A stretch of 64,000 bases of DNA, from the NCBI GenBank assembly GCA_964187785.1, contig OZ076409.1, positions 36,892,001 to 36,956,000 of the forward strand. The letters run 5' to 3'. The DNA is from Amphiscolops sp. MND2022 (Eukaryota). A program made the translations under genes and the position numbers. Under the pieces are notes generated by a model. The model was given only the letters and a program-made list of their open reading frames with translations. It did not search any database and was not told the origin of the DNA. Of this stretch, positions 22,463 to 64,000 are shown piece after piece. Numbering within the stretch: the first letter of the stretch is position 1; the number at the start of each line of letters is the position of its first letter.

Positions 22463-22930
22463 CTGTTCAAATCGATGAAAAACATTTTTCATAATTTTTT
22501 TCCTGGAAGAAGAAAATTTCAAGTTAAAGTACAACATCCCAGGTGGACATTAATTTCCGGTACCTGGAACAGTAACTGAGAATCTTCGCTCTTGATGGGA
22601 CCTTGGCAACATTGTTAATCGATCATAATTGTGTTACTCTGACGGAAAAAACTTTAGATATTGCTCGGTTAAGATACTTTGGGAAATAAAGGGTTAAAAT
22701 ACTTGCGAAGTAGTTTTTTTACATCATCTTAGAAACTCAAAGGGACCAAAGGGTACGCCCTCCTTAGAGTATTTTCGGCTCTGTGAGACTTTTTTTCGAA
22801 AAAATTTTTAATGTCTCAAAAGGGTCCCCCCTTCGAGTTTTCTCATATTTTGCAACTGAATGTATGTTAATCAATCCCAAAGGGTCCCCCCTTCTACATT
22901 TTTTGGCACTATGCGACTTTTTTTGATGAA

Positions 22931-35350: not shown

Positions 35351-35639
35351 ATTAAAAGGATCAGTATACCAAACCGAACCGGAATGGCTACGTTAAATTT
35401 TGGAACCTTCTAAACTACGTAAATACTGCGGATACTGAATGTACGCCAAAAGGAAAAACGACAAATCATCAAATCATCAGTACAGAATTATTATAACACC
35501 AAAGAGTCGGCATTCAATTCTTATCAATCATCTTCAACTTGTGGACAACACCAGGGTCTTTATCTTTCGTCTGAGGTTTCTTCTTCTTCTCAGGAGTTTC
35601 TTGTGCTTTCCCTATCGAAGAACAACCAACTCCTTCAGT

Positions 35640-38600: not shown

Positions 38601-39389
38601 ATTCTTTTAACAAATGACCCAACCAAGCGGGGCAAGAAAACTACATAATACCTAACGAAACACAAAATATTACCTAATTAAAGATACTAACTGCCCAAGC
38701 CTCCATCCAAAAGATCGTGAAGCGTTGGAGTCTCGTTGACTACTTGCTGAACGACCGGCTCTGCAAAATCCACAGTTGCTACCTGTGCCAGGACCGGACT
38801 TTTTGGGAATCTCCGGAACGGCAGCGTCTCCCTCCGCCCCATCGTCCCCGTCTTTTGAGGTGGGCGGATCTGCCTCGGCTCCTCGAGGCTCAATTTCAGC
38901 ATTTTCTTCAAGAAGAGGCTGAATGGTCTCCCCAGATTGCCCAGGAATAACGACTAATGGAGACGACTTGACGACAGTCCCGGGAAAAACGGAAGAAGTA
39001 CCACTTCCAGCCCCAGGAAGTACAGAAGTCAAAGCAGCATTAATAGTCACTGCAGAGAATACCTCAGAGATAACCGGAAGTCCTCCGGGAGCCTCGGGTA
39101 GAACATCACTCGTACCAGTGTTGAACCCGGGAAGAGTAATCGGTTGAGTTACTCAAAATCAAGATTGGGTTCAGACGCGTCAGAGTATTCGGGGAGACTA
39201 CAAAGGCTGATCACCAAAACAAAAGTCCAATCACCCATGAAAGTCAGAAAGATTTTACCAACCCGAAGTAGGACGAGAAACTTCCATTTCCGAGTAAATC
39301 ACATCATCATCGGTGAAATTATATGACGTCTCGTTTCCACTGACAAATCCAGTAGCAGTACCGGGAAGAGGGACAGTATCTCCATCCAT
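35640..39389 (-). pseudogene. Spliced antisense accessory gene of the Gypsy element (Zn-finger protein, unknown function), decayed
   Basis: Series of minus-strand ORF pieces with GT-AG introns (e.g. 37652-37780); alignable with the gene at 56856-61401. Confidence 0.7.
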
Positions 39390-42300: not shown

Positions 42301-43769
42301 TTGATGAACAAACCCGATTTTTGTGATACCTAGAAATTTTTAGGTGAGGAACAATTGGTGCTGAAAAGGTATAAATATGAAAAACTTACATGTGAAGTTA
42401 GTTAAACCATTATTGTTCACCACTTAATTGTCCGTTGTTTCAACGAAAAGCTAAAGCTTACTTCGAAGAATTTACCTTTTGCCGAAGATTCTATTTTTTC
42501 AGCTAAAAATGACAACTAGAAGTCAGAAAAGGAAAGCAGTAGCTGAGCTAGCTTCTGGAGATTTTGAGACCTCTATAGCTGAGAATAGTCCTTCTGAAAA
42601 TCTTGTAGCAAGTTCTAGCAAGTCTCCTAGAATACAATCTGAGAACTTAGACGAGATAAAAACGTCTTTGAGAAAAGTGATTATGTCTGATTTAGCAAAG
42701 ATGTTAGCCAAAAACCAAAAAGAAATACTAAAATTCATAGCACCATTGAATAAATAACAGCAAGTCCATCTGAACAACCAGGATTCTGATTCTGAGCCTG
42801 AGACTATCTCCGCAACTAGAACGTCAAGTGTAACGGCTGCTTGCCCTTATCCTGCGCTGAGGCTTGACAAGCTTTACGCCGCCCCGATCCGTTGCTTAGT
42901 GCTGTGGACCGTCACTAAACAAATCCGGGTTTCTTGTTTTAAAGGACTGTATCTTTTGGCTTGATGGGTCCGATGTGACCCGTGGAATCTCCTGCGATTC
43001 CTCTTTGCACTGAGTTGGATCCGATGTGATCCTGCACACACTTCCCTCTCTGTATCTTCACGCGCTCCGGCTCTCCAACTATGAGAGTAGCTACTTAGTC
43101 GCTCTAACTCTAGCGAAAAGTTGTGAAGATTGAGAAGTTGATTAATTAGTCTCTTGGTCCTAAGACCCAACTTGACTATAGCTATTCAGTGGAGAAAATC
43201 TCTATCTAAAAATGGTATAAATGTGGTTTACAATTCTACAGTAAATATAAGCAAATATTAGTTTAAATATTAGCATAAACAAATTAATTGGTGGTTTTGG
43301 CAAGTTGGTTAGGTGGGCTAGAAAGTATGTTTACACAATGTAAACATAAAAATTTCAACAGAGTTACATTTCCTTCAAGGTCGAATGAGAAAATAACATA
43401 ATATTTAACACATCAAAATTGGGTAAATTATGTGGTCTGACATAGGTCATTTTGGGTGTTAATTGCTCGAAACCCAGGGGACATACGGGGTTGGGTGTTC
43501 AGAGTGAAAAGTTTGAAGAACACCACCACTATATATGTGCCAAGTTTCAAGGTGATTGATGAAGTGGTTCACCGGGACGGGGGGGACGGCACATTTTGCA
43601 AAGCCTTATTTCGGGTGAAACTTGTAAATTTCTAACTAAAATCTTGATAAATTTTCGAAGTGTTTTGAGTTATACGTTTCATCAGTCGCGTTCGAATTTG
43701 AGTTTCTGATCTTGCAAGTGACTGGCGCTAACATTGCCGGCTTTGTTTTTCTACTGAAAAACACTTTCG

Positions 43770-46700
43770 TAGAACATGGGTGCCAGTTTCACTACTGGTC
43801 GTTTCAGTTTTCCATCTTCAGTTCTCACCAGCGCTGATCTCACTCGCCCATCGCTTCCATGATAGACTTCTAACACTCTAGCCATTTTTTAGTGAGCTCT
43901 CTTTACGTTTTCATCCACTATCCAAACCAAATCATTGACTCCCAGTTGTCGTACATCTTCTTTATTCCATTTAGATCTCTCATTCCATTGTGGTAAAAAC
44001 TCTTTATTCCATCTGCTCCAGATCATATCGGCATATGCCTGAGATACTCTGAATACTCTTCGCAGATCTGTATATCGCTGAGCGTCGGGAATAAATGGGG
44101 TTGCTGGACTCGCACGTCCTAGCAGGAAGTGGTTAGGAGTTAAAGCTTCCAAATCTTCAGGATCGTCGCTTACACTAGTCAGAGGTCTCGAGTTCAATAT
44201 CGGCTCAACTAGACACATGGTTGTGGATAGTAAATCATCTGTCAGTGTTCTGTTTCCCACTATTGCCATCATAGCTTTCTTGCAGCTTCTAACCATTCGC
44301 TCCCAAACACCTCCAAAATGCGGCGCTCCTGGAGGGTTGAACTTCCATTTTATTTGCTTTTGAGCCAACGACTGCTCAGTGTCTGATTGATTCCAAGCTT
44401 CTATCCATTCTCGCATCTCTCTTGCTGCGCCCACGAAATTTGTTCCGTTGTCACTTAGAATGATATTGGGTTTCCCTCTTCGTGCGATGAATCTCGTTAT
44501 AGCAGCAAGACAAGCGTCGGCTTCCAAGCTGGGCACGACTTCAACATGCACAGCTCTTGTTGTCAAACATGTGAATAGACAACACCAGCGTTTCATTGAT
44601 TTCCTCATGAATCTCACTTCGAATGGTCCAAAGTAATCTACACCAGTGTTGGCAAAAGGGAAAACTCTTTCTTCCAAACTTTCTTCCGGTAGGTCTGCCA
44701 TGAAAGGTTGAACTCCTCCAACTTGTTGCCTTCTGCACTTGACACACTTCATCTTCACATTTCTGAGCGTGTTTCGGAGTCCAATTATCCAGTAATTTTG
44801 CTGCAAAATACTGCGAACATACTCTGTTCCTTCATGATAGTTAATTTCGTGAGCATCCTCAATCAATTTTCTCACTATTGGATGCTTCGCAGATTGCAAA
44901 ATTGGATGTTTCATTTCATAACTCGCAACAGCATGACGTAGTCGTCCTTTCAATCGCATTAGGTTCTGATTGTCCAAAAACGGTGATAGTTTGTTCAAGT
45001 GATCAGATGCTGCCATGGGTTTACCTGCTGCCAATGCTTGGTAAGTAGTACCGAAGCTTTCTATCTGGCTTTTACGCAGTAGCCTTTGGGTCACTTGCTG
45101 CAATTCTTCTCTCATGACTACTTTTCCTTTGATTTTTGATTGAAACCGAAGGCAGTAGGCGAAGATCCGGGTCATTTTTCTAAAAGAACCGAACGTCTCC
45201 CAATCTATGTCCTTTTCTTCCAACACGACTTCAAAGACTTGTTCCATGTCATCTGTTTTTTGTTTAAACAACTGTGGTGAAGTTTGTGGCCAAGCATCTT
45301 CTTTCTCTCGAAGCCATGCCGGCCCTGTGAACCATTCGCTCTTGTCCAGCTCGAGAACCGAGTTTCCTATTGTTCCAATGTCGGCAGGGTTTAATGTTCC
45401 TTCGACATGTCTCCGTTGATCAATAGTTGAGCTGTCAAGAATTTCAGCAACTCTGTTTGCTACAAACACCGGTTGTTTCTTGTCTGCTCCATGCAACCAT
45501 TGTAAAACAGTTGTCGAATCCGTCCAAAAGAATGTTCGTTCAATTTCCACGTCGTGTTCGTCTACGATCAGTTGTTTCAATCGAGTCCCATGCATAGCTG
45601 CTTGTAGTTCTAGTCTTGGTATTGATTGTTGCTTCATTGGCGCTACTCGGCATTTTCCTACTACATAGGCAAGCTCTCCTGTTGATTGTTGATCCCGAAA
45701 GTACGCTACCATGCACATAGCGTCTAAGGATGCATCAGCGAAAACATGCAAGTCTACTACTTCAACATTTTCCGATAAAAAGTTTCTTTTGAGAGTCATC
45801 TCATTCATGTGACTCAACTCCGATGCCCAATCTTTGAAAGCAATCTCGTCTTCTGGAGATACTTGTTCGTCCCACGATTGCCCATGCTTCTTCCAAATTC
45901 TTTTGAGCAACAATCTCATCCTCAATGTGAAAGGGGAAAACAATCCCAACGTGTCAAACACCGAGGGTATTTGGGATAAAACTACTCGCTGAGTAACCTT
46001 CACAGGCACCTCTTTTCCCATACCGCGGCAGATCTCAAGACTGTCCGACTTCACATTCCACTGGAGTCCCAAGATTGAGGGTGCCAAGGGTTCAGCTTCG
46101 AATGTGTTGCTCAGCGCGCTTGATCTACCTTCAGGAGATATTCTTTCCATTACCTTCTCTGAGTTGCAAATCCATTTTGTTAGTTGGAATCCACCAGCGG
46201 CTTAGGACCTTCGCAAGCTTTTGTACATTCCAACGGCTTCTTCCTCTGAAGGTACCGACTTCACAAAATCGTCCATGTAGAAGTTTCTGTTTATCAACTT
46301 TGCAACCATCCCATGGTCATCTCTGCAATCTCTTCCGACTTGTTGCAAAGCATAGTTGACACATGTTGGCGAACTCATAGCTCCGAAAATGTGTCTTCCA
46401 TATTCGTAAGCGGAGATTAGATCAGTGTTGTTTTCTCTCCACAAAAATCTAAGCACTTTGCAATCCGCAGGGGGTACTTTCACTTGGAGAAACATCGCTT
46501 CTACATCTGCGGTCAAAGCAATTTTCTTCTCCCTGAATCTGAAGATAATTAATTCCAATGAGCGACTGTAGGAGGTCTGGACCGGCCATCAAATTGTCGT
46601 TTAGTGAAACGCCTCCGAACTTTGAAGCAGCGTTGCACACTCGTCTCACTTTGTCCGGCTTGTTCGGGTTCAGCACAGAAAGATGGGGAACGTACCACTG

Positions 46701-49700
46701 AAGTTCTGTTTTGGTGTTTTCAATCTCTGCCTCATCCAGAATTCTCACAAACCCCTTTTGTACGTCCACATCAATTGTCTCTTTGTTGCGTTGTTTCAAG
46801 TTCTCATCCTTTTCCAGTCGGCGCTCGAGAGACTTCAATTGACTTACTGCTGAACTGTAGTTATTTGGCAGATGCGGCTTTGCATTTTTCCAGAGTAGTG
46901 CGACCTCATACATCTCTCCATCGAACTTTGTGGTTGCCTTGAGCATTTCGAGGGCCTTGTCGTCCTCCTTGGACCTTCCGTATGCGCTGCAGTTGGACGC
47001 ATACGATTCTATGCTCCACCAAGTTTTAACTTGATCCTCTAATGGATCCACTTCTGCTGCAACTAGACTCTCAGTTGGGAGTTTTGCTGTCTCTTGTTGA
47101 GGCAAGGGTCCACTGAGCATCCATCCCAGTTTGGTTCGCATTGCCCAGGGCTTGGCGTTTCCACATTTTCTATAGTCGATTGCTCTATGCAAGTGGTAAC
47201 AATCTTGTCCCAAGATGACTTTTACCTCTCCCAAGTTGACGGTAGAGTCTTTCAAGACTGACAGGTGAGGATATGTTTCCTTCAATTTCTTGAGGTTGTA
47301 TGTTCGACTTCCTGCTTTCACGTTGGGATGGCTATAAGCCATGATATTTTCATTGATCCTCCCGTCTTGATCTCCAATCTTGACTCGAAGTCGTTTGCTA
47401 CTAATATCTGACGTTCCATGAATCCCTGCAACATTCAAATCCACTGGCTGTCCCGTTAGCTTTAGCATTTTCATCAGGCTCTCGTCCACAAAGGACAGGC
47501 TTGCTCCAGAGTCGCACAAAGCGAACGTTTTCAGAGTTTTGTTCCCACTCCCTAACGTTACTGGAATGACTGGAAGCACTCCACTGCTTTTCATTGATGA
47601 CAATTTGGAGACCTCCTCGACGTTTTCAACATTTTTCTTTTGTTCCACGTTCTTGTATGGTCTGTGTAGCAATCTGTGATGAGGTTTTCCGCAATCACTT
47701 ACGTCGCAGAGTCTACCAGAGCAATTTCTCATCTGATGCGCGTCTGACAAACATTTGAAGCACAATTTCAACTCTTTTGTCCTCTTTCTTCGACGTTCAT
47801 CTTCTTGAACTTCTCACATTTCCATATGGGATGTTTGCCATCTTTCAGCGCACACTCTCGCTGGTATTTCGAGTTGTCACTGGCTGTGTTTGTTGTTGAT
47901 ATGGCAAACGTGGAGCCATTGGCCTTTTCCTTGTAGTTCGACTTCGCGCGATCAGCATTCGGGTTTGAAGACAAAAGCAATCCGTCTTGAACATCTGCTA
48001 TATCATTGAGCCATTCACTGAACACAGCGAGTCCAGGTTGATACAGGTTCATTTGCTTGACATAAAGGAGCCACGTCGTTTTCATGTCCAGTGTTAACTT
48101 CCTTGTGGCACTGCCCAGGACTCCTTCTGTGTTTAGGTCTCCCACGTAGTTGAATTGTGTCAGAACGTTCACACAAGTCGACACTATTCTCGCAAACTTG
48201 ATAAATGCGGCTCCATCATAAGGTTTCATAGTAGGAAAGGAATAGATTCGTTTCAACTTGGGCGTTCACAATCATTTGAGGTTTTCCAAAGTTTCGAACT
48301 AGAACGTTCCACGCCACATTGTACATCTCAGCTGTGTATCCAAAGCCAGCAATCGCCTCTTTGGCTTTGCCCGTGACCATTGTTTTTAGGTGGTTCATCT
48401 TTACACTGTCGTCTATATTTGCTGCGTGGACGGTTGCTTGAAATAGTTGTGACCACTCTGGCCACTCCAATGGGTCACCTGAGAATTCTGCCAACTTCAG
48501 TTTTGGCAAGCTGGATCTAATGAAATAGTCATCTCTTACGTTCGACGCCACGTTTGGCCCTTGACCTGGCAAATACTGTTTTTGTGTGTTCGCAAGCTGT
48601 GGTACTTGAAATGCACCACTCTGGATGCCTCCAAACATAGGCGGTAACCGATTCGTGACTGCACTGAGAGTCATCGACGGCTCCGATGAGGCGAATTACA
48701 CTCCTGGTTGTGCTGTTGCTCTTTGGCTGACAGCATCTATGACAGTCTTTGTTCTGTCCTTTCCAATACCTCGACTAGCGGCTTCGGTGGATATAGTCGG
48801 TTTCACTGAGGGTTTCAAGTCCCTCACTAGCGCGGAGCATTGTCCTTCATGCATCGATTGTACTGTAATCACTGGTGCTGAGACGGACCTTTGCTGGTAT
48901 ACAGATGGCACGTTAATAGTCCATGCCACGTTTTCAGCTTCTTCTGTCTTGTCCATCCATCCTGAGATTTTCGTCAGATCGTCATCTGGAGTCTCGACCG
49001 GTGATATACTTCGTAAACTAGACCCACAACTGCTCGACGCTTGCGCAATTTGTATTTCCTTTTCGGCAATTTTGGCTTTGCGGACCAGCTCTTCTTGCAG
49101 GTCAGCTATTTCCATTTGCTTTAGCTGCGTCAAGCGAGGTTGCAGCTCTCCTTGTTCTTTCAAAGCTTTCAGCTCCGTCTTGCACTTGATGTTTTCGAAA
49201 TCACAGATGTTTTATTGCTTTTGGTTTTGTCACCTTGCGAATCTATACTCACTTCCTCTAGTTGCAGTGATCTAGCTCTATTTCTTGGCTCTCGTCTGTC
49301 ATCCGCGATGTGACCATCATCGTGTCTTTTTTGCTCATCGTCTGGTTGTGTTTCTTTTTGTGACGAGGTACCATTTTTACTGAATTTGTCTGCTGCCGAG
49401 TTTACACGAGCGTCTGCTAGTCTTTGTTCAGCGTCTTCAAGACTTCGCAAAAAGGCTCCCTCGTCTCTTGACTTCAGCAGAGCTTCATTTTTTGTTTTAA
49501 TGTCAGACCTTTTCTGCAGCAATTCTTGACACGCTGCAGCATAATCTTCTTCGTTGGCGTCATTGCCATTTGCGATTGAATCCTCCCGCAACTTTTCGCT
49601 GCTAACCATTAGTTTATCAATAGCACGTTTCTTTTCGTCAAGATCCAAGTAGTTTAGTATCTGATTTTCGTCTTGCAATGCTGACATCAGTATTTTTACC

Positions 49701-50038
49701 CTTCCAATGCTAGAGCATTGATGCTGCAACTCAACCAATCGGCTCTGCATTGCTTTGTTCGCTGCTGAGAATTTTTCGGGTATCTGCGGTTGGTACTTGA
49801 CATTGATTGCATTTTCCACTGCTTTAATGAGCCGATCTCTCCTGTTTATGGCATCTGTTCGTCTTAACAGCAAATCTGCTATCTGCTTGTCGTTGCTAGC
49901 TAGGTTCTCATCAATTTCTTTCACAGCCTTACCGTGTTCGACAGCTGCATTCCAATAACTCAACGTTTGGGCTTTGTCAGCAGAGTTCTTCAGAAAGTTT
50001 TCTATTTTGTTGATATCGAACCGTTTAGGTTCTGACAT
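43770..50038 (-). pseudogene. BEL/Pao gag-pol polyprotein, frameshifted
   Basis: DUF1759-like KLAEFSGDPLEWPEW; CFKCL..H knuckles; protease LCDSGAS; RT FYMDD; Pao RNase H LHVFADAS and SIPRLEL; integrase GVDYFGPF, SDNGTNF, GGVWER. Confidence 0.92.
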
Positions 50039-50074
50039 CTCTTCTCTTGTCGATTGAGTTTTAGTTCCAAATTC

Positions 50075-50389
50075 ACAATAGCCCAATCTCCCAGAGACAC
50101 GATAGCCCAATATCTAAGAGACACAATAGCTCAATCTCCCAGACACACAGTAGCCCAATCTCCCAGAGACACAATAGCCCAATCTCCCAGAGATACAATA
50201 GCCCAATCTCCCAGAGACACAGTAGCCCAATCTCCCAGAGACACAGTAGCCCAATCTCCCAGAGACACAGTAGCCCAATCTCCCAGAGACACAGTAGCCC
50301 AATCTCCCAGAGACACAGTAGCCCAATCTCCCAGAGACACAGAAGCCCAATCTCCCAGAGACACAGTAGCCCAATCTCCCAGAGACACA
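50075..50389. repeat. 24-bp minisatellite, ~13 copies, in the BEL 5' leader
   Basis: Unit GAGACACAGTAGCCCAATCTCCCA. Confidence 0.95.
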
Positions 50390-52085
50390 AAGTCAGAGAC
50401 TCCAAGAATCAGACACTTGTTCTTCTTGGGCAATCTTCTCAGTTGTCCACCAACGAGTCGTCTTCTTCTAGTCCGGGTCGTCCACCAACGAGTTGTCCGG
50501 GTCGGCGGACCAAATGTAACGGCTGCTTGCCTTTATCCTGCGCTGAGGCTTGACAAGCTTTACGCCGCCCTGATCCGTTGCTTAGTGCTGTGGACCGTCA
50601 CTAAACAAATCCTGGTTTCTCGTTTTAAAGGACTGTATCTTTTGGCTTGATGGGTCCGAAGTTATTGACTAAGTAAACAAACTATGTGGTGGTTTTGGCA
50701 TGTTGGTTAGGTGGGCTAGAAAGTATGTTTACACAATGTAAACATAAAAATTTCAACAGAGCTACATTTCCTTCAAGGTCGAATGAGAAAATAACATAAT
50801 ATTTAGCACATCACAATTGGGTAAATTATGTGGTCTGACATAGGTCACTTTGGGTGTTAATTCCTCGAAACCCAGGGGACATACAGGGTTGGCTGTTCAG
50901 AGTGAAAAGTTAGAGGAACACCACCACTATATGTGTGCCAAGTTTCAAGGTGATTGATGGAGTGGTTCACCGGGACGGGGGGGCACATTTTGCAATGCCT
51001 TACTTCTGGTGAAACTTGTAAATTTCTAACTAAAATCTTGATAAATTTTCTAAGTGTTTTGAGTTATAAGTTTCATCAGTCACGTTCAAGTTTGAGTTTC
51101 TGATCTTGCAAGTGACTGGCGCCAATATCAACACCTGTTAAAACAACAACTGCGACTAACTCTAAACAACTCCGGTAAACAGTCGTAACAACAGGTATTG
51201 GAAAAAAAAACATTTTAACCGTCGTACAACATCAAATAAATTAGAAAACAACGTCAATAGAAAACACTATTCCACATTCAAAGTAACTACTTGCCAATAT
51301 TCAAATATTTCCATTTACTCTTGTAAGTCTCGATAATATCTTGTTTATTTTTGCTTCATAGAACCCTTTTGAATTTTTCTACTACGAGTCTGGTTAAGAG
51401 ATTTATCAGGAGTTTCAAGAACCAAGTTGCAAAACTAACAACTATTTTGGTTCCAATTATTTTGCAAATGTTCGCACTACCAGTCAGACTATTGTACTCT
51501 TAAATGTTCGTTACAGGTCAACACGAAGCTGTGAATATCAGGATGTGATCGCTGGATTGGTAGCGTGAACGACTGAAGCATTGAGTTACGCAAATTGAGC
51601 CGCAGATAGGAACGGTTTTTGTTTATTTTCATTCACATTCGTTAGCTTTTCTCTTGAAACTCTTGGCAAGATCTTGCAAGATCGTACACTTTCTTAGCAA
51701 TTTTAATGAGAATTCTGCAAGCTTCCCACCAAGGGTTTCACCAAAATGCAAAAACCTTCCAAAAAAATCTTCTCTGTGGGTACTGCTTTTCAAAAAACTT
51801 ACTTGACTTTTCATCAGAAAACTATTTTCAGCGTTAATTTTGGAACATTACGAACGTTCTGCACTGGATAGATACGAACTCCAGATTATTTCTCGCTTCA
51901 CTAATTCAATGAAAGTCAAGAATGCAGCTAATATCCGAAAATGGCATTGTTATTGCAATGCCAAAAACATGAATTGGGATTTAGGGCCCAACAAAGCTGT
52001 AGAAGTGATAACATCTAAAACGTTGAATCAAAGAACCTTCTCGCAAAAAGTAGGACAGTGCCAAAAACAGGGATTGGGCCTTTTG

Positions 52086-52631
52086 CCCTAGTTGAAGCTG
52101 CAGGAACTTTTTACATGCTGCAGGCATGCATGCAGGGTAATTTTTTTAAAAACCTAGAAAATTCAGTGAACTTCGGTTGGTAATTCATGTACAATTACAC
52201 TGCATTTCCTACTATTGTAATTAGATTTGAAAATAAGATACACTAGATTACCGACACGATCACTTTGTATACACACTTTGTTTTCTCAGCTACTCATCTG
52301 ATGTGATCACCGCTTCTCAAATAGCACACTAGAAATGACGCTAACTTGCATTGTATTATGCGACTGAAGTTATTTTGCATTGATTTAGCGGCAAAAATGA
52401 TAGCGCGTATTTGCTTTCAAAATTAAAAATGCTGCTTAATGAAACCTGCAAAACTTCATGGCTCAAAATTGCCGCCAATGCTTTGATAAATCTTTCAAGC
52501 AACTTGATAAAAGTTAAATACAACAGGGACAAATTCGCATGAAAGTTTCCGTAAGAGTTTTAGAAAATCATAATAAAAATTGCTGGCAGCATTAAAGTAC
52601 ATGCAAAAATTTCAAGCAGTTTCAACAAGGG
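52086..52631. mobile_element. MITE
   Basis: TIRs CCCTAGTTGAAGCTGC / GCAGTTTCAACAAGGG; related short fragment at ~12590-12715. Confidence 0.6.
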
Positions 52632-52683
52632 TGGTCTTTTTTACCGGTTCAAACTTTCATTCCGCGCAACACTCGAACGCACG

Positions 52684-54460
52684 TGTCGAACCCACGCTGT
52701 TGGGGCGGCTTTGAAGGACCTTTCGAACTGGATGGCTGTACTTCGCCATTACTTTTGTTTACAATTGCCATCATCAAGTCCTTCAGTTAACTAAATTCAT
52801 GATGTAACTCACTAATCCTTCGTTCGTAACTTTCTTTTAATTCAGACAACTGGGAAGAGATGTCAGAATCATCGTTGGTATCAGAATCGTTAGAGTTTGC
52901 TTGAGTCATGTTCAAATCCACGGGAGAATCTATTTCTGACGAGGAATCAATAATTCTGCCGCTTCTGAGTACTGTTCCTTGGTTTTGACTCATATAAACA
53001 AATGAAAATGATTTATGAGTGAAGACTGAATTTCTGAGATGTTTTATGGATGTGTTTTGTTATTTTATCGTTGGTTGCAATATCTCGAATTCACTAATCT
53101 TGAATTGAGATGATTTAGAGATGAAGTTTACAAAGGAAATGAGTATCTAATAATGAAGGTAAATCAGAGAAGCAATTTAAAGAAGTTCATCCAAGTTTCA
53201 TCGTAAAAATAGATTCACTGGAAGATTATTCAGAAAAGTCAATTTATCGTTGTTAGAGATGGATTGTAGATGTAATTTTGAAGACTTTATGTAGTTTCTC
53301 AACTGTACGGTAACTAGTCGCAATCTCGGTCTGAGTAATCTCTAATGGCGGCTTAAACTACAGCAGTTCACGTGTCTTTTCAGGCTGGTAAGACGTTAAA
53401 TCTCTTACCAGCCTTCCCTCATTGGTCAATGTCAGTTGGTGCTAATTGGTAAGTCACGTGACCGGTGTTGTGAACTGCCACAGGGTGGCCACACATCATG
53501 ATGAATCTACACACGTGTAAATGGTGGTTAATCATCACTTTTACAGTGTCGCAATTGCCTGCACATATCACAATGGTTTCTATAGCACAGGAGATGAGTT
53601 CAAAGTATTCGATATCACACTAATTTTAAGTCAAATTAAAGTAGGATGCATTCCGAGATGGGAAAACGATGTTTTCCAGCTGATTCTAGCACTAAAATCG
53701 GTGCTTTGCAATTAAGGATGGATATGTGATGAACACATGAGAATATTTGCTGATTTTCAAGTCTAGTTTTGTTTCTGGATGGAAAAGCGATGAAATGTAG
53801 TCTTTCTCACTCGAAAATCAACACTATTCAAAGTAACGATGATCAAAGGATGAATTTCCTCCAAAATTTGTCAATTTCCAGCACAAATAAAAATGACGAT
53901 GAATTTAGGATGAATTCACTCAATAATTCCAATGAAATAGCCAACTCTACTGTAAAATCAAATCAGCGATGAGTTTGGGAAGATCTCCTCTAATAATTCA
54001 GCAAAGTCTGGCACGAATCAAAATCAGGATGGTTTTTAGATGAACTTACTCAACAAAACAGATAATTCAGCACATTCACACTTTTTAGGATGAATTAGAG
54101 ATGTACTTTCTCATTTCTTTCTGTTTACTGTCCATGCGATGAATTAGAGATGAGTTATCGTCTCTAAGAAATGAGGAGCACATTTGGAGTTACTAAATGA
54201 AATACTGCGATGAGTTTAATATAAAAGAATCAAGTCTAGTCCCATGAAATCCGCTGATGGATTTGTGATAAGAATAAAGTATAAAGTCCCATACTTTGTT
54301 CGTTCGCAATTCTTGGGGATGAAACTGCGATGAACTTTCTCATAAAAGCACCGGATGAATCCGCTGATGGACTCAGGTAAATCTCTAACTGAATTTGGTT
54401 CACTACTAAATCCGCCGATGGATCAGCGATGAACTTTGTGAAAACGTCGTCACGACTACA
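52684..54460 (-). repeat. Probable 3' LTR of a second Gypsy-like element (rest extends rightwards)
   Basis: Begins TGTCGA and ends near CACGACTACA next to agccctg; contains a minus-strand coiled-coil ORF running to the LTR edge, as in the first Gypsy LTR; partner LTR not in window. Confidence 0.5.
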
Positions 54461-55394
54461 AGCCCTGAGGCGTGGAGTTAGTAGAAGTTACACATTTTAT
54501 CATTTTTTCAATGTCTCTTGGTCCAGTCTGACCGGAAAACTTCTCTCCTTTGTCGTGACAAACCAATATTTTTTGAAATATAGCAATTCAAGGACATTGG
54601 CAAGATCATTTATGCGGACACCGGAACTAGAGCGCTCAGTATTAAGTAAATATATATAACTCAAACTCATGGGGGAATGGGGATTAAGTACAAGTAAAGT
54701 AGGGTTGCTCACAACCATGGCTTTTATTATATGACATCATATTGCCCATATCTAAGTACATAAGACATAATATTTACATTACAGATATTTAGTAGATTAT
54801 ATTTCCATCATGCTGGCATGACACTCCCCGGGGTGGGATTTGGATTGAGAGTGCAGGGGCCAAATGTGCAGAGGATGGTTGTCTCGGCGTTGGCTTCGAC
54901 TGTTTTCTTCGTTCGGTTGGGGAGAAAATGTCCTTCGTTAGTTCTGAATTGGCATGTCCTTCGTTTGTTCTGTCCCATGTAAATCTTCTCTGAGAAGAGG
55001 ACTTTCGGCAATCGTCATGTCTGGCTTCATTCTGGGTGATTTCGGTTAAAATTTCTCGACGCGGCAGCTCTAGTTCTTGGCCCATCGAATGTCCGCTGAT
55101 CTGCTTTTTATTGGTTGTCATACTTTTTGACGTGAGATCGGTCTGCTGATAGTTTCGGTGAAAATCTCGATTTCCTGGTGAAAAGATTTCTCCAGGCCTC
55201 CTACGCTGAGTAAACACTGCTGCTATTTTCATTGACAATATAGCAGTAAGGTGGCGCTGCCATTTTGTCTACTAAAAGCTTCTCGGGATGAATGAACGAT
55301 GAATTGTTTACTCAGCGAGGCATCGATGTTGACTTAGCAGAGACTGGCGCCGCTGCTCTGTTGTCAAATTTCCGCGATAGGAAAGAGATGAATT

Positions 55395-55475
55395 GTTGTC
55401 ATAGCAACCACCGTTGTCACTTCCGCTGTCTGATTTCTCAGCGATGAGAAAGAGATGAATCGTCGCCATAGCAAC
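55395..55475. promoter_or_regulatory. Two RFX X-box-like motifs
   Basis: GTTGTCATAGCAAC (55395-55408) and GTCGCCATAGCAAC (55462-55475), followed by an ATTGG/CCAAT box. Confidence 0.45.
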
Positions 55476-55480
55476 CGCTG

Positions 55481-57184
55481 CTTATCCTGATTGGCTAAAA
55501 ACTGAATTTTCTGACTGGAGGAAATCCAACCGATTGTCAATAACATTCTCATCCGTGAATCATCTTCCGTTCAGTCGGTTTGAAAATCGCCACGATTTCC
55601 TTTGCGCGTTTCCGTTCAACTTCATCGGCATCGATCTGAGACTGGCAGCTGTCAACAAATCAAATACTTGAAGCTTTTGTAGTCAAGTCCTTAGAGTGGA
55701 CGATCCATTTTCCTGAGAAGTTTTGAACTGGTTGTAACTGGGAAGAAAGAGTGTAGTTAGTCTTTGAAATCGGAGAGTTTTCATCGAGTTTTCATCGTTT
55801 GAATTCAAGTCTTTGATTTACTCTGGCATTCAAGCTGCATTTGTGCTCTTTGATATTTTTCTCGTGAATTTGTTTCCTCGTAATCATGGTTGATCAGGCC
55901 ATTTAATTACTGATCAAATTCCTGTACTGAGTTCTTCGATTTCGTTCCTCCCTTCACTCTCTTCCATTTCAGATTGTTGCTTGCAATTTCCCTCAAATTC
56001 AGTATGTCTGACATCCATTCAGTCCATTCGTTACCAGAGACCGAGGCCACAGAAAGTAAGTGGACTATTTTTCTTTCCTTTTCACAAACGGTTTTGGGGA
56101 AACCGAGTACTGAAGACACATCTTGCTTCAGCGGACTCAGTCCATTCTGTCGGAATTGTGTCTGAACTCACGACACTCGAGACTTTACCGCCTCAAGAGG
56201 CTCCAGCCACTCAGCCAGCGATTGCTGAGCCGCAAATTGACCCCGACCTCCAGATTGGTCAGCCAGTCAACTTCCCGTATCTGCCGCAGTGTAAGTACTG
56301 TCCTTCCAGATTTCCAATTCAGTCCATTATTCCTTATCCTGATTGGCTAAAAACTGAATTTTCTGACTGGAGGAAATCCAACCGATTGTCAATAACATTC
56401 TCATCCGTGAATCATCTTCCGTTCAGTCGGTTTGAAAATCGCCACGATTTCCTTTGCGCGTTTCCGCTCAACTTCATCGGCATCGATCTGAGACTGGCAG
56501 CTGTCAACAAATCAAATACTTGAAGCTTTTGTAGTCAAGTCCTAAGAGTGGACGATCCATTTTCCTGAGAAGTTTTGAACTGGTTGTAACTGGGAAGAAA
56601 GAGTGTAGTTAGTCTTTGAAATCGGAGAGTTTTCATCGAGTTTTCATCGTTTGAATTCAAGTCTTTGATTTACTCTGGCATTCAAGCAGCATTTGTGCTC
56701 TTTGATATTTTTCTCGTGAATTTGTTTCCTCGTAATCATGGTTGATCAGGCCATTTAATTACTGATCAAATTCCTGTACTGAGTTCTTCGATTTCGTTCC
56801 TCCCTTCACTCTCTTCCATTTCAGATTGTTGCTTGCAATTTCCCTCAAATTCAGTATGTCTGACATCCATTCAGTCCATTCGTTACCAGAGACCGAGGCC
56901 ACAGAAAGTAAGTGGACTATTTTTCTTTCCTTTTCACAAACGGTTTTGGGGAAACCGAGTACTGAAGACACATCTTGCTTCAGCGGACTCAGTCCATTCT
57001 GTCGGAATTGTGTCTGAACTCACGACACTCGAGACTGTACCGCCTCAAGAGGCTCCAGCCACTCAGCCAGCGATTGCTGAGCCGCAAATTGACCCCGACC
57101 TCCAGATTGGTCAGCCAGTCAACTTCCCGTATCTGCCGCAGTGTAAGTACTGTCCTTCCAGATTTCCAATTCAGTCCATGATTC
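55481..57184. repeat. 852-bp tandem duplication
   Basis: cttatcctgattggc at 55481 and 56333; near-identical copies. Confidence 0.92.
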
Positions 57185-60100
57185 CTTCATTTCCCATCTC
57201 TAATCCATCCAGACGCTGACTCTTCCCATCTGATGTTTTAGACCACTTCCCTTGGTATTCCTCCCTAGGGAGTATTACCTTCGGGTGGTACGACCGATAC
57301 ATGCGGGACATGCTGCGTGACAGCATCCAACAGTACAGTAAGTTGACAATTTCCATTTTTCTCTTCTCTAGGGCGTCGTCCGGACACTACGATGTAATTC
57401 TGATGTTTCCATCTCATCTTCATGTAGTGTCTTTTGTGGTCGATTAGCCATGTAATTCACTTTTGAGGTGAACTTAAGATGTGTTGTTGACATTCGTAAT
57501 CCCTTGTGACTAATTCATTGCAGGTTCCATTTGAAAATGGATATGAGATGAAATTTTCTTTGATCTTCTTTTCTTCGCGCGGATTACGCGCACTTGCTTC
57601 TCCACTCTTCGTCGTTTGAGTACAGTTTCTATTTTTCAGGTCCTACGCCGATTCACGCTCCCAGACCACGTCCCATCTGATGTTCCATTGGGATTGGGAC
57701 CAGTGATTTCGGCGCAGATCACATCGATGCCAGTACCCAGGGCGGGCCTCCTCCACTGGAGCTGTCATCTTTTTTGCAAGACCTTGCATTGAATGCCACC
57801 AGTTCTCCGGTCTCAATGGTTCCAGTCTCTGTGTTGTCGCCCAACTTCCAAAGGTACTTGGATATTGGACTCACTGCCAGAAGTCCTCCTCCTCCTCCTC
57901 CTCCTCGGGTAAATGTGTGCCACGGTACCTCAACGAGGGATGAGGTGCAGTATGTGGATGTGGCAATCATTGCTGTGCGCGATTCCGCTGATGTAGCAGT
58001 GCAGGCTGTTGTGGAGACCAGTGATTCCTCCACCGTACACGATCCTCCCGTCGTGTCTCCTCCAGTTGCTTTCCCGTTGGCTACTGATGTCCCTGAGGTG
58101 GTGGAGTCAGTTGTCGACCAGCCTGGCCTTCCTTCAACCAGTAGCACTGAGACACAGTTTGACATTCCCGAGGACTTCTCCTTCGGTGGTGCTCCGTCTG
58201 TTGGCCCTGATCCTGACGACGCTGTTCCTGTACCAGACACTGGATCGAGGGAGACTTCGCCGATGGGGCCCAGCCTCATTGACTCTGATGATGAGCCAAT
58301 CGCGTCTCGTCTACCAGGTTACCTAGACAGCTTTAAAACCTGTGAAGTATCTGATCGACTTTTTTCTTTCATTCGTATTTTCCTTTTTCACTTCCATTTT
58401 TTCGCTTGGCAATTCAGATTTTTCTATCTTTTCATCTATTCTTCATCCTTTTAGTTCTTTCCGCCAGTTGGTTTGTTCAAGTTTCACTTCTCGTTGTTTT
58501 ATCATTGTCTAGAGTTTTCAAATGTGGTGTCTTCTCCCTTTTCAGGTTTTAGCCATTTTTACAACTTTTCATCTTTTTTACATCCTCGAAACATTCTCTT
58601 TTGTTTTTAGCTTTTCCTTTATCATTTCTTTTCAGTTTACATCTCTTTTTCATCTTTTCCTTTTTTTCTTCGTTTTTCGCTTATATTTCATTTTTTTGAT
58701 CATTTTTTCACACTCCGGGTGTGTCTTTTGAAGTTTTCGATTGATTTTCTATTTTTCGTTTTTCTAGGATGTGTAGAGGATGGGTTTGACAATTTCGGTG
58801 TTCGTTTTATTTTAGGAAGGAAGATTCTCAAACCTTCGTGGTTTGATCATGCTTATTGCGGATTGGCGCTTGGGTTTGCCAAGGATCATCAAACTCGAGA
58901 TTCGTTTGTGCGGTGCCTGCTATTCAAGCAGGACGTGAGAATAGCGAGCCGCGGGATTACGACATTTTTCGAACACTGTCGTGGACTGAGGCACCATCGG
59001 TTGGACTGCTTGGTGCGCTTGCGACGTGGGTTGGCATTGAGAAGACGCGATGGTACACTGATGTCTGAAAGTGAGTCCGAAGCGTGTGCAGCAATGTTGG
59101 TCAGCGAAACAGTGCCGATAGTGGAGTCATGCCCTAGTGTTACCGTTCTTGAGGCTCTGCAGACTGAGGCGGCTGGCAGGTCCGTGTGGGGCGAATTGCG
59201 TGCAGTGGACGACAATCACCATATCGAGAGTGTGAGATTGTTCGTCTGCCTTGTCGCGGATGCCATCTATCGTGATTGCGATTTCTCAAGCGTGACACAT
59301 CTGCGGGACCTGATGGTGTCCTCAAATTTGCAGCATGCGGTGTTGTTTGGTGCAGCGTGTCGAGAAGCGGACGTAATGGTTATTATATATAATGTGTTGT
59401 ATTTCATATTATATGTTACATGTATATGTGGTCACTAGTAAGCAAAAAGTTGTTTCTCGGTTTCGGGGTTTGCCTGAAAATGTGGGTAATGTATTTCGTG
59501 TAAGTCCTTTTTTTGTGTTTAGAGTTTAGTCCTCATGGGGTTCTGGCCCTATGTTATGCGGCGCGTGCTGAGCTTGTGGGCAGAGACTGAGTTCACTCGT
59601 TTTGGCTTAGCGATTGTGGGCGACAGAGTTGTGGGCACTGTCAACGTATGCACTGCAGAGGGGCTTGCCAGTTATGTGGTTTTGTCCTTTAATTACGCAC
59701 AAGACTGGGAACAGCGTGTGGTCGTGTGGATGGTGAATATGCTCTGTTGCGCTGTGGGGCAGGTTTCCCCTGTCGGGGTCAGTTGCAGTCTTCTACACAG
59801 ATTGGAAGATGTGCTAGTGCGAAATTCTGGGTTAGGAGCTGTATCACTCGTTCCTCTGCGGATTAGTGATTTGAACAAAGTTCTTGTTGACGTGAGTGTG
59901 CGCGTTATGGGTGGAGTTGATGTTCACTCCCTGTTCAATCATTTGCAGACGAGAATGAGAGACTTCGTGCAAGATGACGTTCTATTGGCTTGTCCGAAGT
60001 TATTGCAAGTGAGTATGTGTTATGTGTTGGCTTTCCTAAAGTCGTGCGTGGTTTTTGTTCTCGTGTAGTTAAAGTGTGTGAGTGGAGGGTCTTTGAAGAG

Positions 60101-61401
60101 GATTTTTTATCCATTTTGATGTTTTTCTTTTTTAGTCTGTGCTAGAAGGTGAAGTCACACCTTGGGATGTACCTGAGGTTTTGACGGAGCTCCATACACA
60201 TTGGTCAGACATTGTTGTGCTACTGAGGGTGCCTAGCAGTTCTGGAGTGTCTGACGCGTTAGACTTTGTGTTGAGCGGCGATCCTAGTGTGTCTCTTCGT
60301 CTCCATGCTTTGTCGCTGGTGTTTCGTGCTCGTATGTACATTTTAAGTTTTTTATAGTATGTCATTTGTAGGGGAGGGGAACGTGAATTTACAGTTTAAA
60401 ATCTAGTTGTAGATCGTGGGGGGGGTGAGTGTTATATACACTTCTGTATGAATTTTTGTTTGATTTTAGTCGTCAACTCTTATCGCTGGAGCTTCAGTAG
60501 CTGTGAATTGCGGACTTCACATTGGGCTTATGAGAGTTCATGTTTTGTGCATTCTATCTTGTCGTACTTAGTGGAGGAATCAGAGCTTCCTGATGTGGTG
60601 GATGTACGCGCTAGTCTGTGCATCGATCTTGATGGACTTGTGGTTTCGGAAACCAAATTAAATGCCCTTCGTGAGGAGTTTGTCACGCACATGGACTGTT
60701 TTGAGTGCCCTGATATTTTTGAGGAGAATGTGGCTCTAGTGAAGGACTTCATGCTGATGGTCGTGGCTGAGATTTTGGGCGCACGTGGAATGAGGGAAGA
60801 TGTGACCTTCCATATGAGCGTTTGTTGTCCTGCCTTGCTATTGTTGGGTGATCCTGATGTGCTGTCAGCAGAAGTTAATCTGTTTACGGATCTCTTGGTC
60901 GACTTGTGACTAGTTACCGCGGTGGGGAAGAGGCGGTTGGATAGGAGCTTCCCTGTGTTCCTAGCTAAATTCCGTCAAATTACAATTGATGTGACTTCGG
61001 ACAGTGCGAGCTCTGCGGTCAAGATTCTGCGAGCATGTGATAGTGTGTCTGCACAGCGGTTGTTCAGGTTTCTAATGTGCCTGAACGAGAGTCCGTTATT
61101 TCCACTGAGGACTGTTTGCAATCGCGTGGGCCAATTGCAAAGTGACATCACGACCAGCGTGTGTTCGAGTGTGTTGAGCTTTCTCAAGGCTCATTGTATA
61201 CGGACCTACGAGAGTGTAAGCGGGCCCCTATTGGAAGAATTATCGGAAGCATTTGGGCAATTTACGACCCTGTCTGATGTGTCTGAAGACTTGTTATGGG
61301 ATGATGTCGGTGTTGTGGCTGCAGAAGATTATCGCCAATCTTTATATGAATTAATGGGATTCACCGGAGAGGGAGAACGTGCTCCGAGTCCGGAAATTTG
61401 A
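56856..61401 (+). pseudogene. Multi-exon Zn-finger gene (about 1,000-1,100 aa), antisense to the second LTR element, with premature TGA stops
   Basis: Phase-compatible exons 57640-58317, 58768-59378, 59523-60008, 60136-60331, 60470-61401 plus small upstream exons from ATGTCTGAC; in-frame TGA at 57678 and 60907. Confidence 0.75.
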
Positions 61402-63316
61402 ACATTGTAGCGTGTTGGATTTTTGATTGTTGTTTATTTTCATGTTGTATATTAGAATTAGTGATTGTATTATGCTGTAGTATAACCTGATGGGTGATCA
61501 ATTCAATGTGTCACTGCTAGTGGTGTGGGGGGGGGGAAACTGTTGCGGCGGAAAAGTCGGCGGCAGGTATATTTACAAAAAAACTATTTGGCATCCGTTA
61601 TTGTTTTTCTCTTGAGATACTAGTGATTGATATAATAGGTAGGAGAGTTTTATGATTGAACAAATGCGACTAGTGGGTCACGTCCGTCAGTGTTTTTTAA
61701 ATTGCATTTGTCATCGCTTTTGCATCGCCTTTTCTTTGTCACACTTCTCAGATATGTTGTCTCACGTTGATCATCGTTATGACATCGCGTCTGGTTGTAG
61801 GTAGTTCATCGTTGTTTTCGTTTTTGATTTTTCATCTCATTTTCATCACAATTTCCTCAGTCGACCGAGTGACGTCGCGAAAACTGTTTTCTCATCTTTT
61901 TTACATCGTTCGTTGTATGAAAATAATTGCATGTTGTTACATGTGTTTTTCTACAAAGTTCATCGTTTTTTCATCGCGAGTTTAAATTCTGACATTTTCA
62001 CATGTTCTCTGATATAGGGCATCTTCTTTTCATCTTATTTTGTGAATTTTCGGTGTTTTGCATGTTTCTGTTTTAAGTTTACGGCATCGTGTGTTTTCAT
62101 GTGCGCGTTGTTTCCGTAATTTCATCTTTTAATGGGTTTTCCCCATCAAATTACAATTGATGTGACTTCGGACAGTGCGAGCTCTGCGGTCAAGATTCTG
62201 CGAGCATGTGATAGTGTGTCTGCACAGCGGTTGTTCAGGTTTCTAATGTGCCTGAACGAGAGTCCGTTATTTCCACTGAGGACTGTTTGCAATCGCGTGG
62301 GCCAATTGCAAAGTGACATCACGACCAGCGTGTGTTCGAGTGTGTTGAGCTTTCTCAAGGCTCATTGTATACGGACCTACGAGAGTGTAAGCGGGCCCCT
62401 ATTGGAAGAATTATCGGAAGCATTTGGGCAATTTACGACCCTGTCTGATGTGTCTGAAGACTTGTTATGGGATGATGTCGGTGTTGTGGCTGCAGAAGAT
62501 TATCGCCAATCTTTATATGAATTAATGGGATTCACCGGAGAGGGAGAACGTGCTCCGAGTCCGGAAATTTGAACATTGTAGCGTGTTGGATTTTTGATTG
62601 TTGTTTATTTTCATGTTGTATATTAGAATTAGTGATTGTATTATGCTGTAGTATAACCTGATGGGTGATCAATTCAATGTGTCACTGCTAGTGGTGTGGG
62701 GGGGGGGAAACTGTTGCGGCGGAAAAGTCGGCGGCAGGTATATTTACAAAAAAACTATTTGGCATCCGTTATTGTTTTTCTCTTGAGATACTAGTGATTG
62801 ATATAATAGGTAGGAGAGTTTTATGATTGAACAAATGCGACTAGTGGGTCACGTCCGTCAGTGTTTTTTAAATTGCATTTGTCATCGCTTTTGCATCGCC
62901 TTTTCTTTGTCACACTTCTCAGATATGTTGTCTCACGTTGATCATCGTTATGACATCGCGTCTGGTCGTAGGTAGTTCATCGTTGTTTTCGTTTTTGATT
63001 TTTCATCTCATTTTCATCACAATTTCCTCAGTCGACCGAGTGACGTCGCGAAAACTGTTTTCTCATCTTTTTTACATCGTTCGTTGTGTGAAAATAATTG
63101 CATGTTGTTACATGTGTTTTTCTACAACGTTCATCGTTTTTTCATCGCGAGTTTAAATTCTGACATTTTCACATGTTCTCTGATATAGGGCATCTTCTTT
63201 TCATCTTATTTTGTGAATTTTCGGTGTTTTGCATGTTTCTGTTTTAAGTTTACGGCATCGTGTGTTTTCATGTGCGCGTTGTTTCCGTAATTTCATCTTT
63301 TAATGGGTTTTCCCCA
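60975..63316. repeat. 1171-bp tandem duplication
   Basis: tcaaattacaattg at 60975 and 62146; near-identical copies. Confidence 0.92.
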
Positions 63317-64000
63317 TTATTTTACTTGTCGCGTTGTTTTCGTTGGAACTTCCAATAAGTTCATTTTCGTTCGTTGATTTGGACAGGGCTTTGTCGTCAC
63401 AAAGCCCCTACAAAACTAACTGAGAATCCACTAGCCGCTGGATAACCAACGCAGCTAGCTTCATCCGAAAATGGTTGTGAGCTCCCCGCCTCAACCAACC
63501 AGCACTCTTTTCAGAGAAATGCCAGCCAGCACGAAGAAATGATTTCGGTCTTTTGCGAGGCTATTTTAATTATTCTAATCGGATGTTGTTAGGAGTTGCT
63601 CTTTCCATTGTTTCAATTTGTGTTAATCTTGAAATTCCCACTACGTTGCATGAGTTTTAGTAAGATACATGTTTCTTCGATTGTATGGTTCGATGTGAGT
63701 TTGCATCGGTTATATGTGAATTGCATAAATTATCTCTTTCGTTATAGAAGGATACATGCGTTTTTCATTGATATTATGTTCGTTTAGGTACATGTAATTT
63801 GGAAGTGTCTGTTTACCAACGTTACGTCATTCAGTTGTAAGGCGTGTATGTGTTTACATGTAATGGTCATTTAGCTGATTTGAATGAGTTATGTTGTTAT
63901 CTTGCATGAAAATCATCGCCTGCTCATCCTTTTGTTCGTACCAAGGTGTTGTGGTAGAACGCTGACTTATTAATTATTGTTTGGATGGTGTTTCCCATCA

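Follow-up and report, generated by a model that had tools for sequence, protein, structure and literature searches.

A 64,000-nucleotide stretch of contig OZ076409.1 from Amphiscolops sp. MND2022 (here called the window; coordinates count from its first letter unless the contig is named) ends inside a complete Ty3/gypsy retrotransposon that hosts a gene of eight predicted coding exons. The gene is antisense to gag-pol and lies between the element's integrase and 3′ long terminal repeat (LTR), and it occurs in three deep families (families 1-3, of which 20, 20 and 17 loci were fetched; the window copy belongs to family 1). The packaged RNA of LTR elements has gag-pol polarity. The introns of the gene are thus antisense to the genomic RNA; the splicing machinery would not recognise them there, and they would be copied like any other part of the element, so that there is no paradox in their surviving RNA transposition. 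Almost certainly, then, the genomic RNA represents the opposite strand and reverse transcription keeps the introns intact, a separate LTR-side transcript being spliced and translated. As to the nature of the gene, the balance seems to us to lie somewhat in favour of a captured and disabled hAT-derived gene whose product binds DNA in the nucleus and regulates the element that carries it. Antisense open reading frames (ORFs) in this location are known from plant and fungal elements; what appears to be new is an intron-rich, hAT-like antisense gene.

The antisense gene and its host element

In our model the gene extends from 56856 to 61401 on the + strand and comprises 1053 codons, seven coding introns and a further intron in the 5′ untranslated region (UTR). 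The first-pass annotation of this DNA had described five consecutive exons (~967 codons); those exons are real, but the model was incomplete, with three extra coding exons lying upstream of it, from the ATG at 56856, all joined in phase 1. Coding exon 1 (56856-56907) runs from this ATG to a phase-1 donor, and just upstream of the start codon is the acceptor of the 5′-UTR intron (56819-56825, + strand); such an acceptor lies no more than 60 nt from the start in 19/20, 12/12 and 5/5 copies of families 1-3 (36 of the 37 with an aligned start). Then come exons 2 (56984-57142) and 3 (57242-57337), followed by intron 3 (57338-57639), which has a conserved block near 57370-57460, and exon 4 (57640-58317), which encodes a low-complexity linker of variable length, rich in Pro, Ser and acidic residues; short motifs make up the rest of exons 1-4. 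The phase-1 intron 4 (58318-58815) precedes exon 5 (58816-59378), the site of a BED-like zinc finger (C-x2-C..H-x5-H, 58914-58994). The phase-0 intron 5 (59379-59522) leads to exon 6 (59523-60008), predicted from its homology to a modelled family-2 exon to encode an RNase H-like core; the phase-0 intron 6 (60009-60135) to exon 7 (60136-60331), a predicted helical insertion region; and the phase-1 intron 7 (60332-60469) to exon 8 (60470-61401), a helical C-terminal region with a conserved SPEI motif at its end.

How far can these introns be trusted, when a spliced aligner yields GT-AG boundaries by construction? Independent support is available from two sources: a MAFFT alignment of the window copy with 29 related copies, built independently of splice signals, and a control on the interior columns of the introns. 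(A DNA search of the organism's own genome, 1.07 Gb in 1929 contigs, gave 41 matches from the best 40 of 332 candidates, and the 29 copies were taken from these.) In the MAFFT alignment the donors of the four introns between exons 4 and 8 were GT in 29, 30, 27 and 28 of the 30 rows, and the acceptors AG in 29, 30, 29 and 29, so that the conservation of GT-AG sites in other copies, on which the first-pass annotation had staked its gene model, extends to 27-30 of 30 rows. Among 20 diverged copies, by comparison, only 2/278, 1/180 and 3/160 interior dinucleotide columns of the three 3′ introns were invariant, and the lengths of these introns fell in all three classes modulo 3. Third codon positions took most of the exonic mismatches (0.41-0.53, as compared with 0.12-0.27 for second positions), and the GC content was 48-57% in exons and 31-37% in the four introns. 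The four GT..AG introns proposed earlier (the first at 58318-58767) do lie where they had been placed, to within two bases, and have the phases given (1, 0, 0, 1). The acceptor of the long intron had been placed at 58767, which is in frame yet not conserved; an AG at this point, 48 nt upstream of the conserved acceptor, was found in only 2/20 diverged copies, whereas AG at 58814-58815 was found in 30/30 close rows and 20/20 diverged copies, and the acceptor has been moved to 58815.

The sole breaks in the five exons of the earlier model are, just as it stated, the TGA codons at 57678 (exon 4) and 60907 (exon 8). Both are private to the window copy: each site has a sense codon in 28 of 29 close copies and a gap in the other, and the stops are not kept elsewhere. 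The window copy also has a substitution at the position of the second zinc ligand (58923). Exons 4-8 are open in nine of the 29 close copies, the remaining 20 having a stop, frameshift or deletion.

The anatomy of the host element, for which the neighbouring 20 kb was added to the window, is that of an LTR retrotransposon. The 3′ LTR (52684-54823, - strand; 2.14 kb, with TG..CA ends) is flanked by a 5-bp target-site duplication (52679-52683, + strand), an identical copy of which follows the other LTR past the window end, and is abutted by a purine-rich run that is a putative polypurine tract (54824-54840, - strand). The 5′ LTR is at ~70895-73030 in window numbering (contig ~36962895-36965030) and is 97.3% identical to the 3′ LTR; the primer-binding site is a TGG-start stretch right after it. 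An internal spacer on the integrase side of the gene (63326-64000, - strand) reaches the window end, with pol and gag further on, on the same strand. An RNase H-integrase ORF occupies ~36956620-36959292 of the contig, and the reverse transcriptase (RT) is split over two frames in the window copy. The order RT then integrase, both on the - strand, was established by tblastn with queries from the RT and integrase of another, older gypsy element in the window, which were identified by Pfam (RVT_1, rve, Integrase_H2C2); what we take to be gag and RNase H were assigned by position and familiar motifs.

Nine further copies fetched at length all had RT and integrase opposite to the gene strand, and in eight of them paired LTRs were 96-99.5% alike. 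At the 57 loci, integrase was antisense to and downstream of the gene in 20/20 of family 1, 18/20 of family 2 and 17/17 of family 3, or 55 of 57 in total (the loci were selected by presence of the gene, so these counts describe gene-bearing elements only); the two exceptions, both in family 2, carry LTR sequence instead, so that integrase or LTR was found at all 57. An env-like third ORF of the errantivirus type is ruled out, the gene being antisense rather than sense to gag-pol, and a DNA-transposon reading is likewise rejected on orientation and anatomy. The window copy includes two tandem duplications (+ strand): one of 852 bp (99.4%; 55481-57187), which repeats the leader and coding exons 1-2, and one of 1171 bp (99.4%; 60972-63325), which repeats the end of exon 8 and a TCATC-rich spacer. 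Many other near-identical (98-100%) tandem or local duplications occur in and outside the element (e.g. 2577/7986, 4527/9937, 11801/17082), by slippage or as assembly artefacts.

Selection, intron turnover and modular exchange

A protein search with exon 8 gave 150 matches among the scored part of 726 candidates, mostly stop-free and down to 55% identity. In 20 of these, family-1 copies taken across subfamilies, six introns are identical in position and phase and the seventh shares the corrected acceptor. Family 3 is related to family 1 with 32% identity over 723 columns (hhalign, P 100%), and family 2 with 20% identity over 514 columns (P 97%). The protein searches gave only unnamed sequences, from ENA where a source was indicated, and including one member of a Logan cluster. 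Two of them that were tested proved identical to loci of the same genome, and hence are not independent hosts; the longer protein matches were only ORFs reading through introns, with no annotated spliced protein among them, and none of 135 pattern matches in JGI metagenomes was confirmed as a relative. P0059, P0064 and P0193/P0195 are relatives on short contigs for which the scored part of the own-genome candidates held no close match (best 29-31%; none at E 1e-60; ~50-60%). P0059, with no close own-genome match, reads through the last intron position, while P0195 appears to read through two upstream positions and keeps two phase-0 introns (its N-terminal match is not significant, E 0.16). To judge from these sequences, other hosts probably carry the gene too, and additional differences in its introns are to be found there.

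Judged by its substitution pattern, the gene is under purifying selection. Median dN/dS was 0.12-0.28 per exon group, using unsaturated pairs only (16-143 of 190), and the raw proportions of nonsynonymous and synonymous differences (pN and pS) were 0.21 and 0.78, respectively, for the gene over 136 pairs. Frames, splice sites and zinc ligands persist across the three families at 18-32% identity, with synonymous sites near saturation. The strand opposite the gene has stops in nearly all frames, and therefore the constraint is not due to an overlapping sense ORF.

The older gypsy element of the window (28394-41308, + strand; LTRs at 28394-29152 and 40576-41308, 87% alike) has the same plan, with RT and integrase on the + strand and the gene antisense to them. 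Its gene is a decayed family-2 version (35522-39380, - strand), with six coding introns and many stops and frameshifts. The first-pass annotation had equated one of these introns, at 37652-37780, with intron 59379-59522, and the two do fall in the same column, in phase 0, of a profile-profile alignment (P 97%, E 2.8e-11), at a position common to all three families. It was also right that intron 60009-60135 has no counterpart in the family of the older element. A layout of seven introns, that one included, is common to families 1 and 3; two of the seven, the phase-0 one that follows the zinc-finger exon and the phase-1 one that precedes the last exon, also occur in family 2, which lacks 60009-60135 and has instead its own phase-0 intron ~45 codons further on. 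The alignments indicate that these two family-specific phase-0 positions are real differences, to which a two-way split between families gives no direction.

Other intron differences do have a direction. The last intron, homologous in position in all three families, is precisely absent from one family-2 subfamily: it is missing, exact to the base, in two copies and present in four others inspected. The two copies without it nest among carriers (SH-aLRT 100), and families 1 and 3 also carry it; by this phylogenetic evidence its absence is a loss. The phase-1 intron of the N-terminal linker is absent from a nested clade of four family-2 copies, and also from the older element of the window, which on the tree is a second loss, although the low-complexity sequence hides its precision. 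A third absence in family 2 (four copies) falls at the root of the tree, so has no polarity (this was a quick tree, using 22 of 46 rows and with long branches flagged). The earlier suggestion of intron gain or loss inside a retroelement is therefore sound as regards presence and absence, which are more widespread than was noticed; of its two directions, both polarised changes are losses, and no gain was shown in any case among the three families. There is about an even chance that single introns are lost when the spliced antisense mRNA, whose polarity is that of the minus strand, is taken up by RT in a template switch, or when its complementary DNA converts the element. With >100 copies per family and tree-polarised losses, this RT model of intron loss is testable within one genome. 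At L078:3850-4350, the last exon of one family-2 copy is split by an unrelated sequence, probably another retroelement, in which one frame is Asn/Gln-rich and resembles a zinc knuckle.

The gene and the LTR seem to have had a different history from pol. In family 1, copies with a pS of 0.78 in the accessory gene (136 pairs) had one of 0.14 in integrase, and in places as little as 0.04, and in two whole-element comparisons between subfamilies pol was 91-99% identical while the gene and LTR were only ~77-88% identical (a third comparison, with a close copy, was flat). Distances on the gene tree and the integrase tree had a correlation of 0.81 overall, and of -0.22, 0.25 and 0.68 within families (46 of the 57 loci). 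We infer that old gene-plus-LTR haplotypes ride on a shared pol through recombination between elements. Such near-identical pol beside near-saturated accessory haplotypes would amount to modular recombination, possibly with balancing selection on a regulator encoded by a transposable element. The pair L051 and L066 has an integrase pS of 0.05 and accessory genes near saturation (pS 0.82).

Origin and possible role of the protein

The hypothesis that the protein is related to hAT transposases was set down before the fold and atlas results were available. The exon-5 zinc finger, whose C, C, H and H are invariant or nearly so in 29 rows, gave a weak zf-BED match in 6/29 exon-5 rows (best E 0.012). 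A model of the family-2 counterpart of exon 6 (pLDDT 66, pTM 0.36) has the succession helix, three strands, helix, strand, helix and long helices; when it was used in a Foldseek search, Hermes chains took ranks 1, 2, 4, 5, 6 and 8 of 350,542 (best E 0.008, ~200 columns), and VIA-align gave Hermes a Z of 4.8 over 140-152 residues (rmsd 17 at 152), with other RNase H-fold proteins reaching up to 6.6-6.8. With the family-2 last exon, PF05699 hAT-dimerisation clusters accounted for 25 of 30 atlas matches (top score 0.92). These three weak but concordant lines (zf-BED, RNase H/Hermes fold and hAT C-terminus), in the right domain order, support a hAT origin: the predicted series runs from a zinc finger through an RNase H-like core and a helical insertion to a hAT-like C-terminus, which is the domain order of a whole transposase. 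The DDE triad and CxxH of active hAT transposases were not found. Neither a CxxH nor, within the fourth strand or immediately beyond it (columns 83-91), a conserved acidic residue is present in 41 family-2 rows; with the catalytic register taken from secondary structure and the Hermes alignment ranges, the second catalytic Asp appears to be absent. Thus the protein fails as an active hAT transposase, yet probably descends from one.

A good deal can be set against this. Every positive hAT signal is below the firm threshold of its tool: the Foldseek E value is above 0.001 and the pTM of the model as low as 0.36; Prp8, integrases and Argonaute have higher Z-scores (5.5-6.8) than Hermes; and the atlas match, obtained for a part and after filtering to named clusters, has 147/256 features in common. 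With 11 host hAT ORFs as targets, profile HMMs scored at the level of shuffles, the zinc finger apart (E 0.033), and hhalign to an alignment of host hATs gave less than 1%. There were no matches in a profile search of the PDB, and Pfam recognised no family, PF05699 included, in six exon pieces of the window. The evidence on the fold was obtained with family 2 rather than with the exons of the window copy; for the family-2 RNase H exon the atlas returned only unrelated matches, below 0.9, and a model of the family-1 last exon (pLDDT 59) had no clear match, its best being to generic helical bundles (Z 6.1), with Foldseek E values of at least 0.9. In family 2 a Glu close to where strand 1 ends is conserved (34 of 35 filled rows) and may occupy one of the catalytic positions. 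As to the role of the protein, the transcript, the protein and its binding to repeats are all predicted, and the repeats concerned are sparser in family 2 (3.1-4.7 per kb).

In spite of these points, the likely origin of the gene is the nested insertion of an intron-bearing hAT element, followed by loss of its ends and catalytic residues. Such an element would have inserted backwards into an ancestral gypsy element, and been retained after losing its ends and its catalysis; the LTR-side transcript would be spliced to yield a nuclear protein; and this zinc-finger protein would bind dispersed GATGA repeats and sustain expression of the element. GATGA/TCATC occurs 11.7-14.5 times per kb in three family-1 LTRs (11.7 in the 3′ LTR of the window), the corresponding figures being 1.4 for exons, 3.7 for pol and 2.6 for the other DNA of the window; for family-1 LTRs and spacer, the density of such repeats is 3-10 times that of these other regions. 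The zinc-finger protein may bind the GATGA-type repeats of the LTR and spacer and so sustain transcription, by trans-activation or anti-silencing, a suggestion to which we give rather less than an even chance. GATGA is enriched on the + strand in and beside the LTR (52684-55900), and TCATC on the + strand in the spacer (61400-64000), so that the motif faces inwards from both sides of the gene; it resembles in this the subterminal repeats of DNA transposons, and base composition may contribute.

Other explanations need to be considered. Could the same spliced antisense gene have been captured from a host gene, such as a domesticated ZBED/FAM200-type gene or one for another RNase H-fold protein? 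Its intron-rich structure would fit, as would the FAM200/GTF2IRD2-like clusters that make up five of the 30 atlas matches, the lack of any sequence link to the sampled host hATs, and the outcome of a search for terminal inverted repeats (TIRs) with an 8-bp duplication: 54824-64000 has 32 inverted pairs, and none of the longest 25 was a terminal pair that enclosed the gene and had a duplication. We nevertheless consider such a capture improbable, in view of the domain order of a whole transposase and of the presence of integrase or an LTR at all 57 loci, with no free-standing host copy among the best candidates. RNase H folds and C2H2 fingers can bind RNA, and the protein might act after transcription, either tethering the integration complex to chromatin or to particular sites, or exporting or packaging genomic RNA, rather as do CERV of Cer1, or Rev. 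Compatible with this are the greater conservation of the 5′ introns (0.76-0.88) than of the 3′ introns (0.52-0.59), and a predicted stem-loop with some compensatory changes (family 1) in the intron-3 block 57370-57460, on the strand of the genomic (gag-pol) RNA, of which it is a possible cis-element. The first intron of family 2 (e.g. L103:2399-2510) has a predicted structure in which only 2/25 pairs covary; Rfam found no match in 52000-64000, and ARAGORN gave none either. CERV, a spliced accessory protein needed for export, is a precedent (PMC10309623). However, the lineage of the gene tracks the LTR and not the integrase, which disfavours a tight integrase partnership (though linkage alone could explain it), and we regard a post-transcriptional role as unlikely, if a little less so than capture from the host.

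Two further ideas fare much worse. The gene might be a passive, unexpressed relic of a nested DNA transposon, to judge from the two stops and substituted zinc ligand of the window copy and the disruption of exons 4-8 in 20/29 close copies; but this is largely refuted by the signal of selection, in that frames, splice sites and zinc ligands have been kept in three families despite near-saturated synonymous sites and that stops on the opposite strand exclude an overlapping sense ORF as the source of constraint, and we would give it very little weight. Still less credible is the proposal that the introns are spliced from the genomic RNA and then regained or retained by some unusual route, or that the element moves as DNA. 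Penelope-like retroelements reportedly do retain introns, but here the introns are opposite to gag-pol at every locus with integrase, and the 98.9-99.7% identity of young LTR pairs, target duplication, primer site and purine tract all speak of ordinary LTR retrotransposition.

Returning to hAT descent, one may combine its elements into a single scheme in which an animal gypsy lineage domesticated a whole, intron-bearing hAT gene, its introns being kept because they are antisense and lost singly by template switching; its product, catalytically dead, would bind the LTR repeats and so keep the element active, and old haplotypes of LTR and regulator would be shuffled onto an almost uniform pol, as in an arms race with host silencing. 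All of this together is rather doubtful; if true, it would represent the domestication of one transposon by another and provide a natural, high-copy assay of RT-mediated intron loss.

Relation to known accessory genes, and other elements of the window

The closest parallels in position are the antisense ORFs termed aORF-3R, found between pol and the 3′ LTR of Grande of maize, RIRE2 of rice, Retand of Silene, PvRetro13 of bean and Boty of Botrytis (PMC7264820). The gene described here resembles them in position, orientation, presence in most copies, conservation and proposed nuclear regulatory role: it lies antisense between pol and the 3′ LTR (55/57 loci), and its conservation is that expected under selection. 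An aORF-3R has its own LTR-side promoter, such as we would expect for our gene too, but these ORFs differ in lacking its seven coding introns and UTR intron, its ~1,050 codons and its probable hAT-transposase architecture. The origin of most such ORFs has been called unknown, a nested transposable element having been suggested without support from sequence similarity, and it was proposed that spliced antisense transcripts be sought; a 'transposase 28' domain was noted in ORF4 of Retand (PMC7264820). The present gene would be one antisense accessory gene of an LTR retrotransposon that can be traced, with some likelihood, to a nested DNA transposon, and it illustrates that antisense accessory genes can be intron-rich, and so easily missed by ORF-based annotation of transposable elements.

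The HBZ gene of HTLV-1 is likewise expressed as a spliced antisense transcript from the 3′ LTR, and its product regulates transcription of its own element, a role that is predicted for our gene (PMC1459196). HBZ, however, belongs to the bZIP proteins, is encoded by an exogenous retrovirus and has a simple pattern of alternative splicing, and the abstract describes neither a transposase-like fold nor intron turnover across families (PMC1459196). With hAT transposases (Hermes; PDB 4d1q, 8edg, 8sjd) and disabled FAM200/GTF2IRD2-like proteins, the gene product shares a predicted domain order; it differs from hATs in that no TIRs were seen, the second Asp and CxxH are not conserved, there is no detectable sequence homology and the gene travels in a retrotransposon, neither between ends of its own nor as part of the host. 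Elsewhere too, transposable elements have recruited accessory proteins of foreign origin. VANC proteins are said to be sequence-specific and to co-evolve rapidly with their targets, which are motif arrays. They are anti-silencing proteins of VANDAL/MuDR elements in Arabidopsis, and PMD and ASY2-like domains occur in plant Ty3/gypsy elements (PMC13547354, PMC9289625). VANC, PMD and ASY2-like proteins are thus comparable to ours as re-used accessories, and the targets of VANC resemble the motif-rich LTR of our element, though the fold of VANC is unrelated and it resides in DNA transposons. Among animal Ty3/gypsy elements, Cer1 of Caenorhabditis elegans is reported to produce CERV by splicing of its sense RNA. 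In the accessible parts of the descriptions, CERV is an accessory protein from a spliced mRNA (PMC10309623), and in planarians the giant gypsy elements named Burro have extras in the form of polyprotein domains or accessory ORFs (PMC6431247); both resemble the present case as animal gypsy elements with accessory proteins, and neither is described there as having an intron-rich antisense gene. In a literature search that covered few subscription journals, with Repbase outside its scope, no report was found of an intron-rich, hAT-like antisense gene in an animal gypsy element.

The remainder of the window holds other elements. A BEL/Pao element (43276-51128, - strand; Peptidase_A17, rve and DUF5641, with LTRs 94% alike and a 24-nt tandem repeat at 50019-50437) sits inside a repeat that is split at 42825-42976/50511-50662, and 42602-42827 repeats 29144-29369 of the older gypsy element. 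Further upstream, at 14600-25000, a piggyBac-like transposase (DDE_Tnp_1_7, E 2.5e-40) is repeated in tandem as four or five partial copies, with 172-nt inverted repeats interspersed among them.

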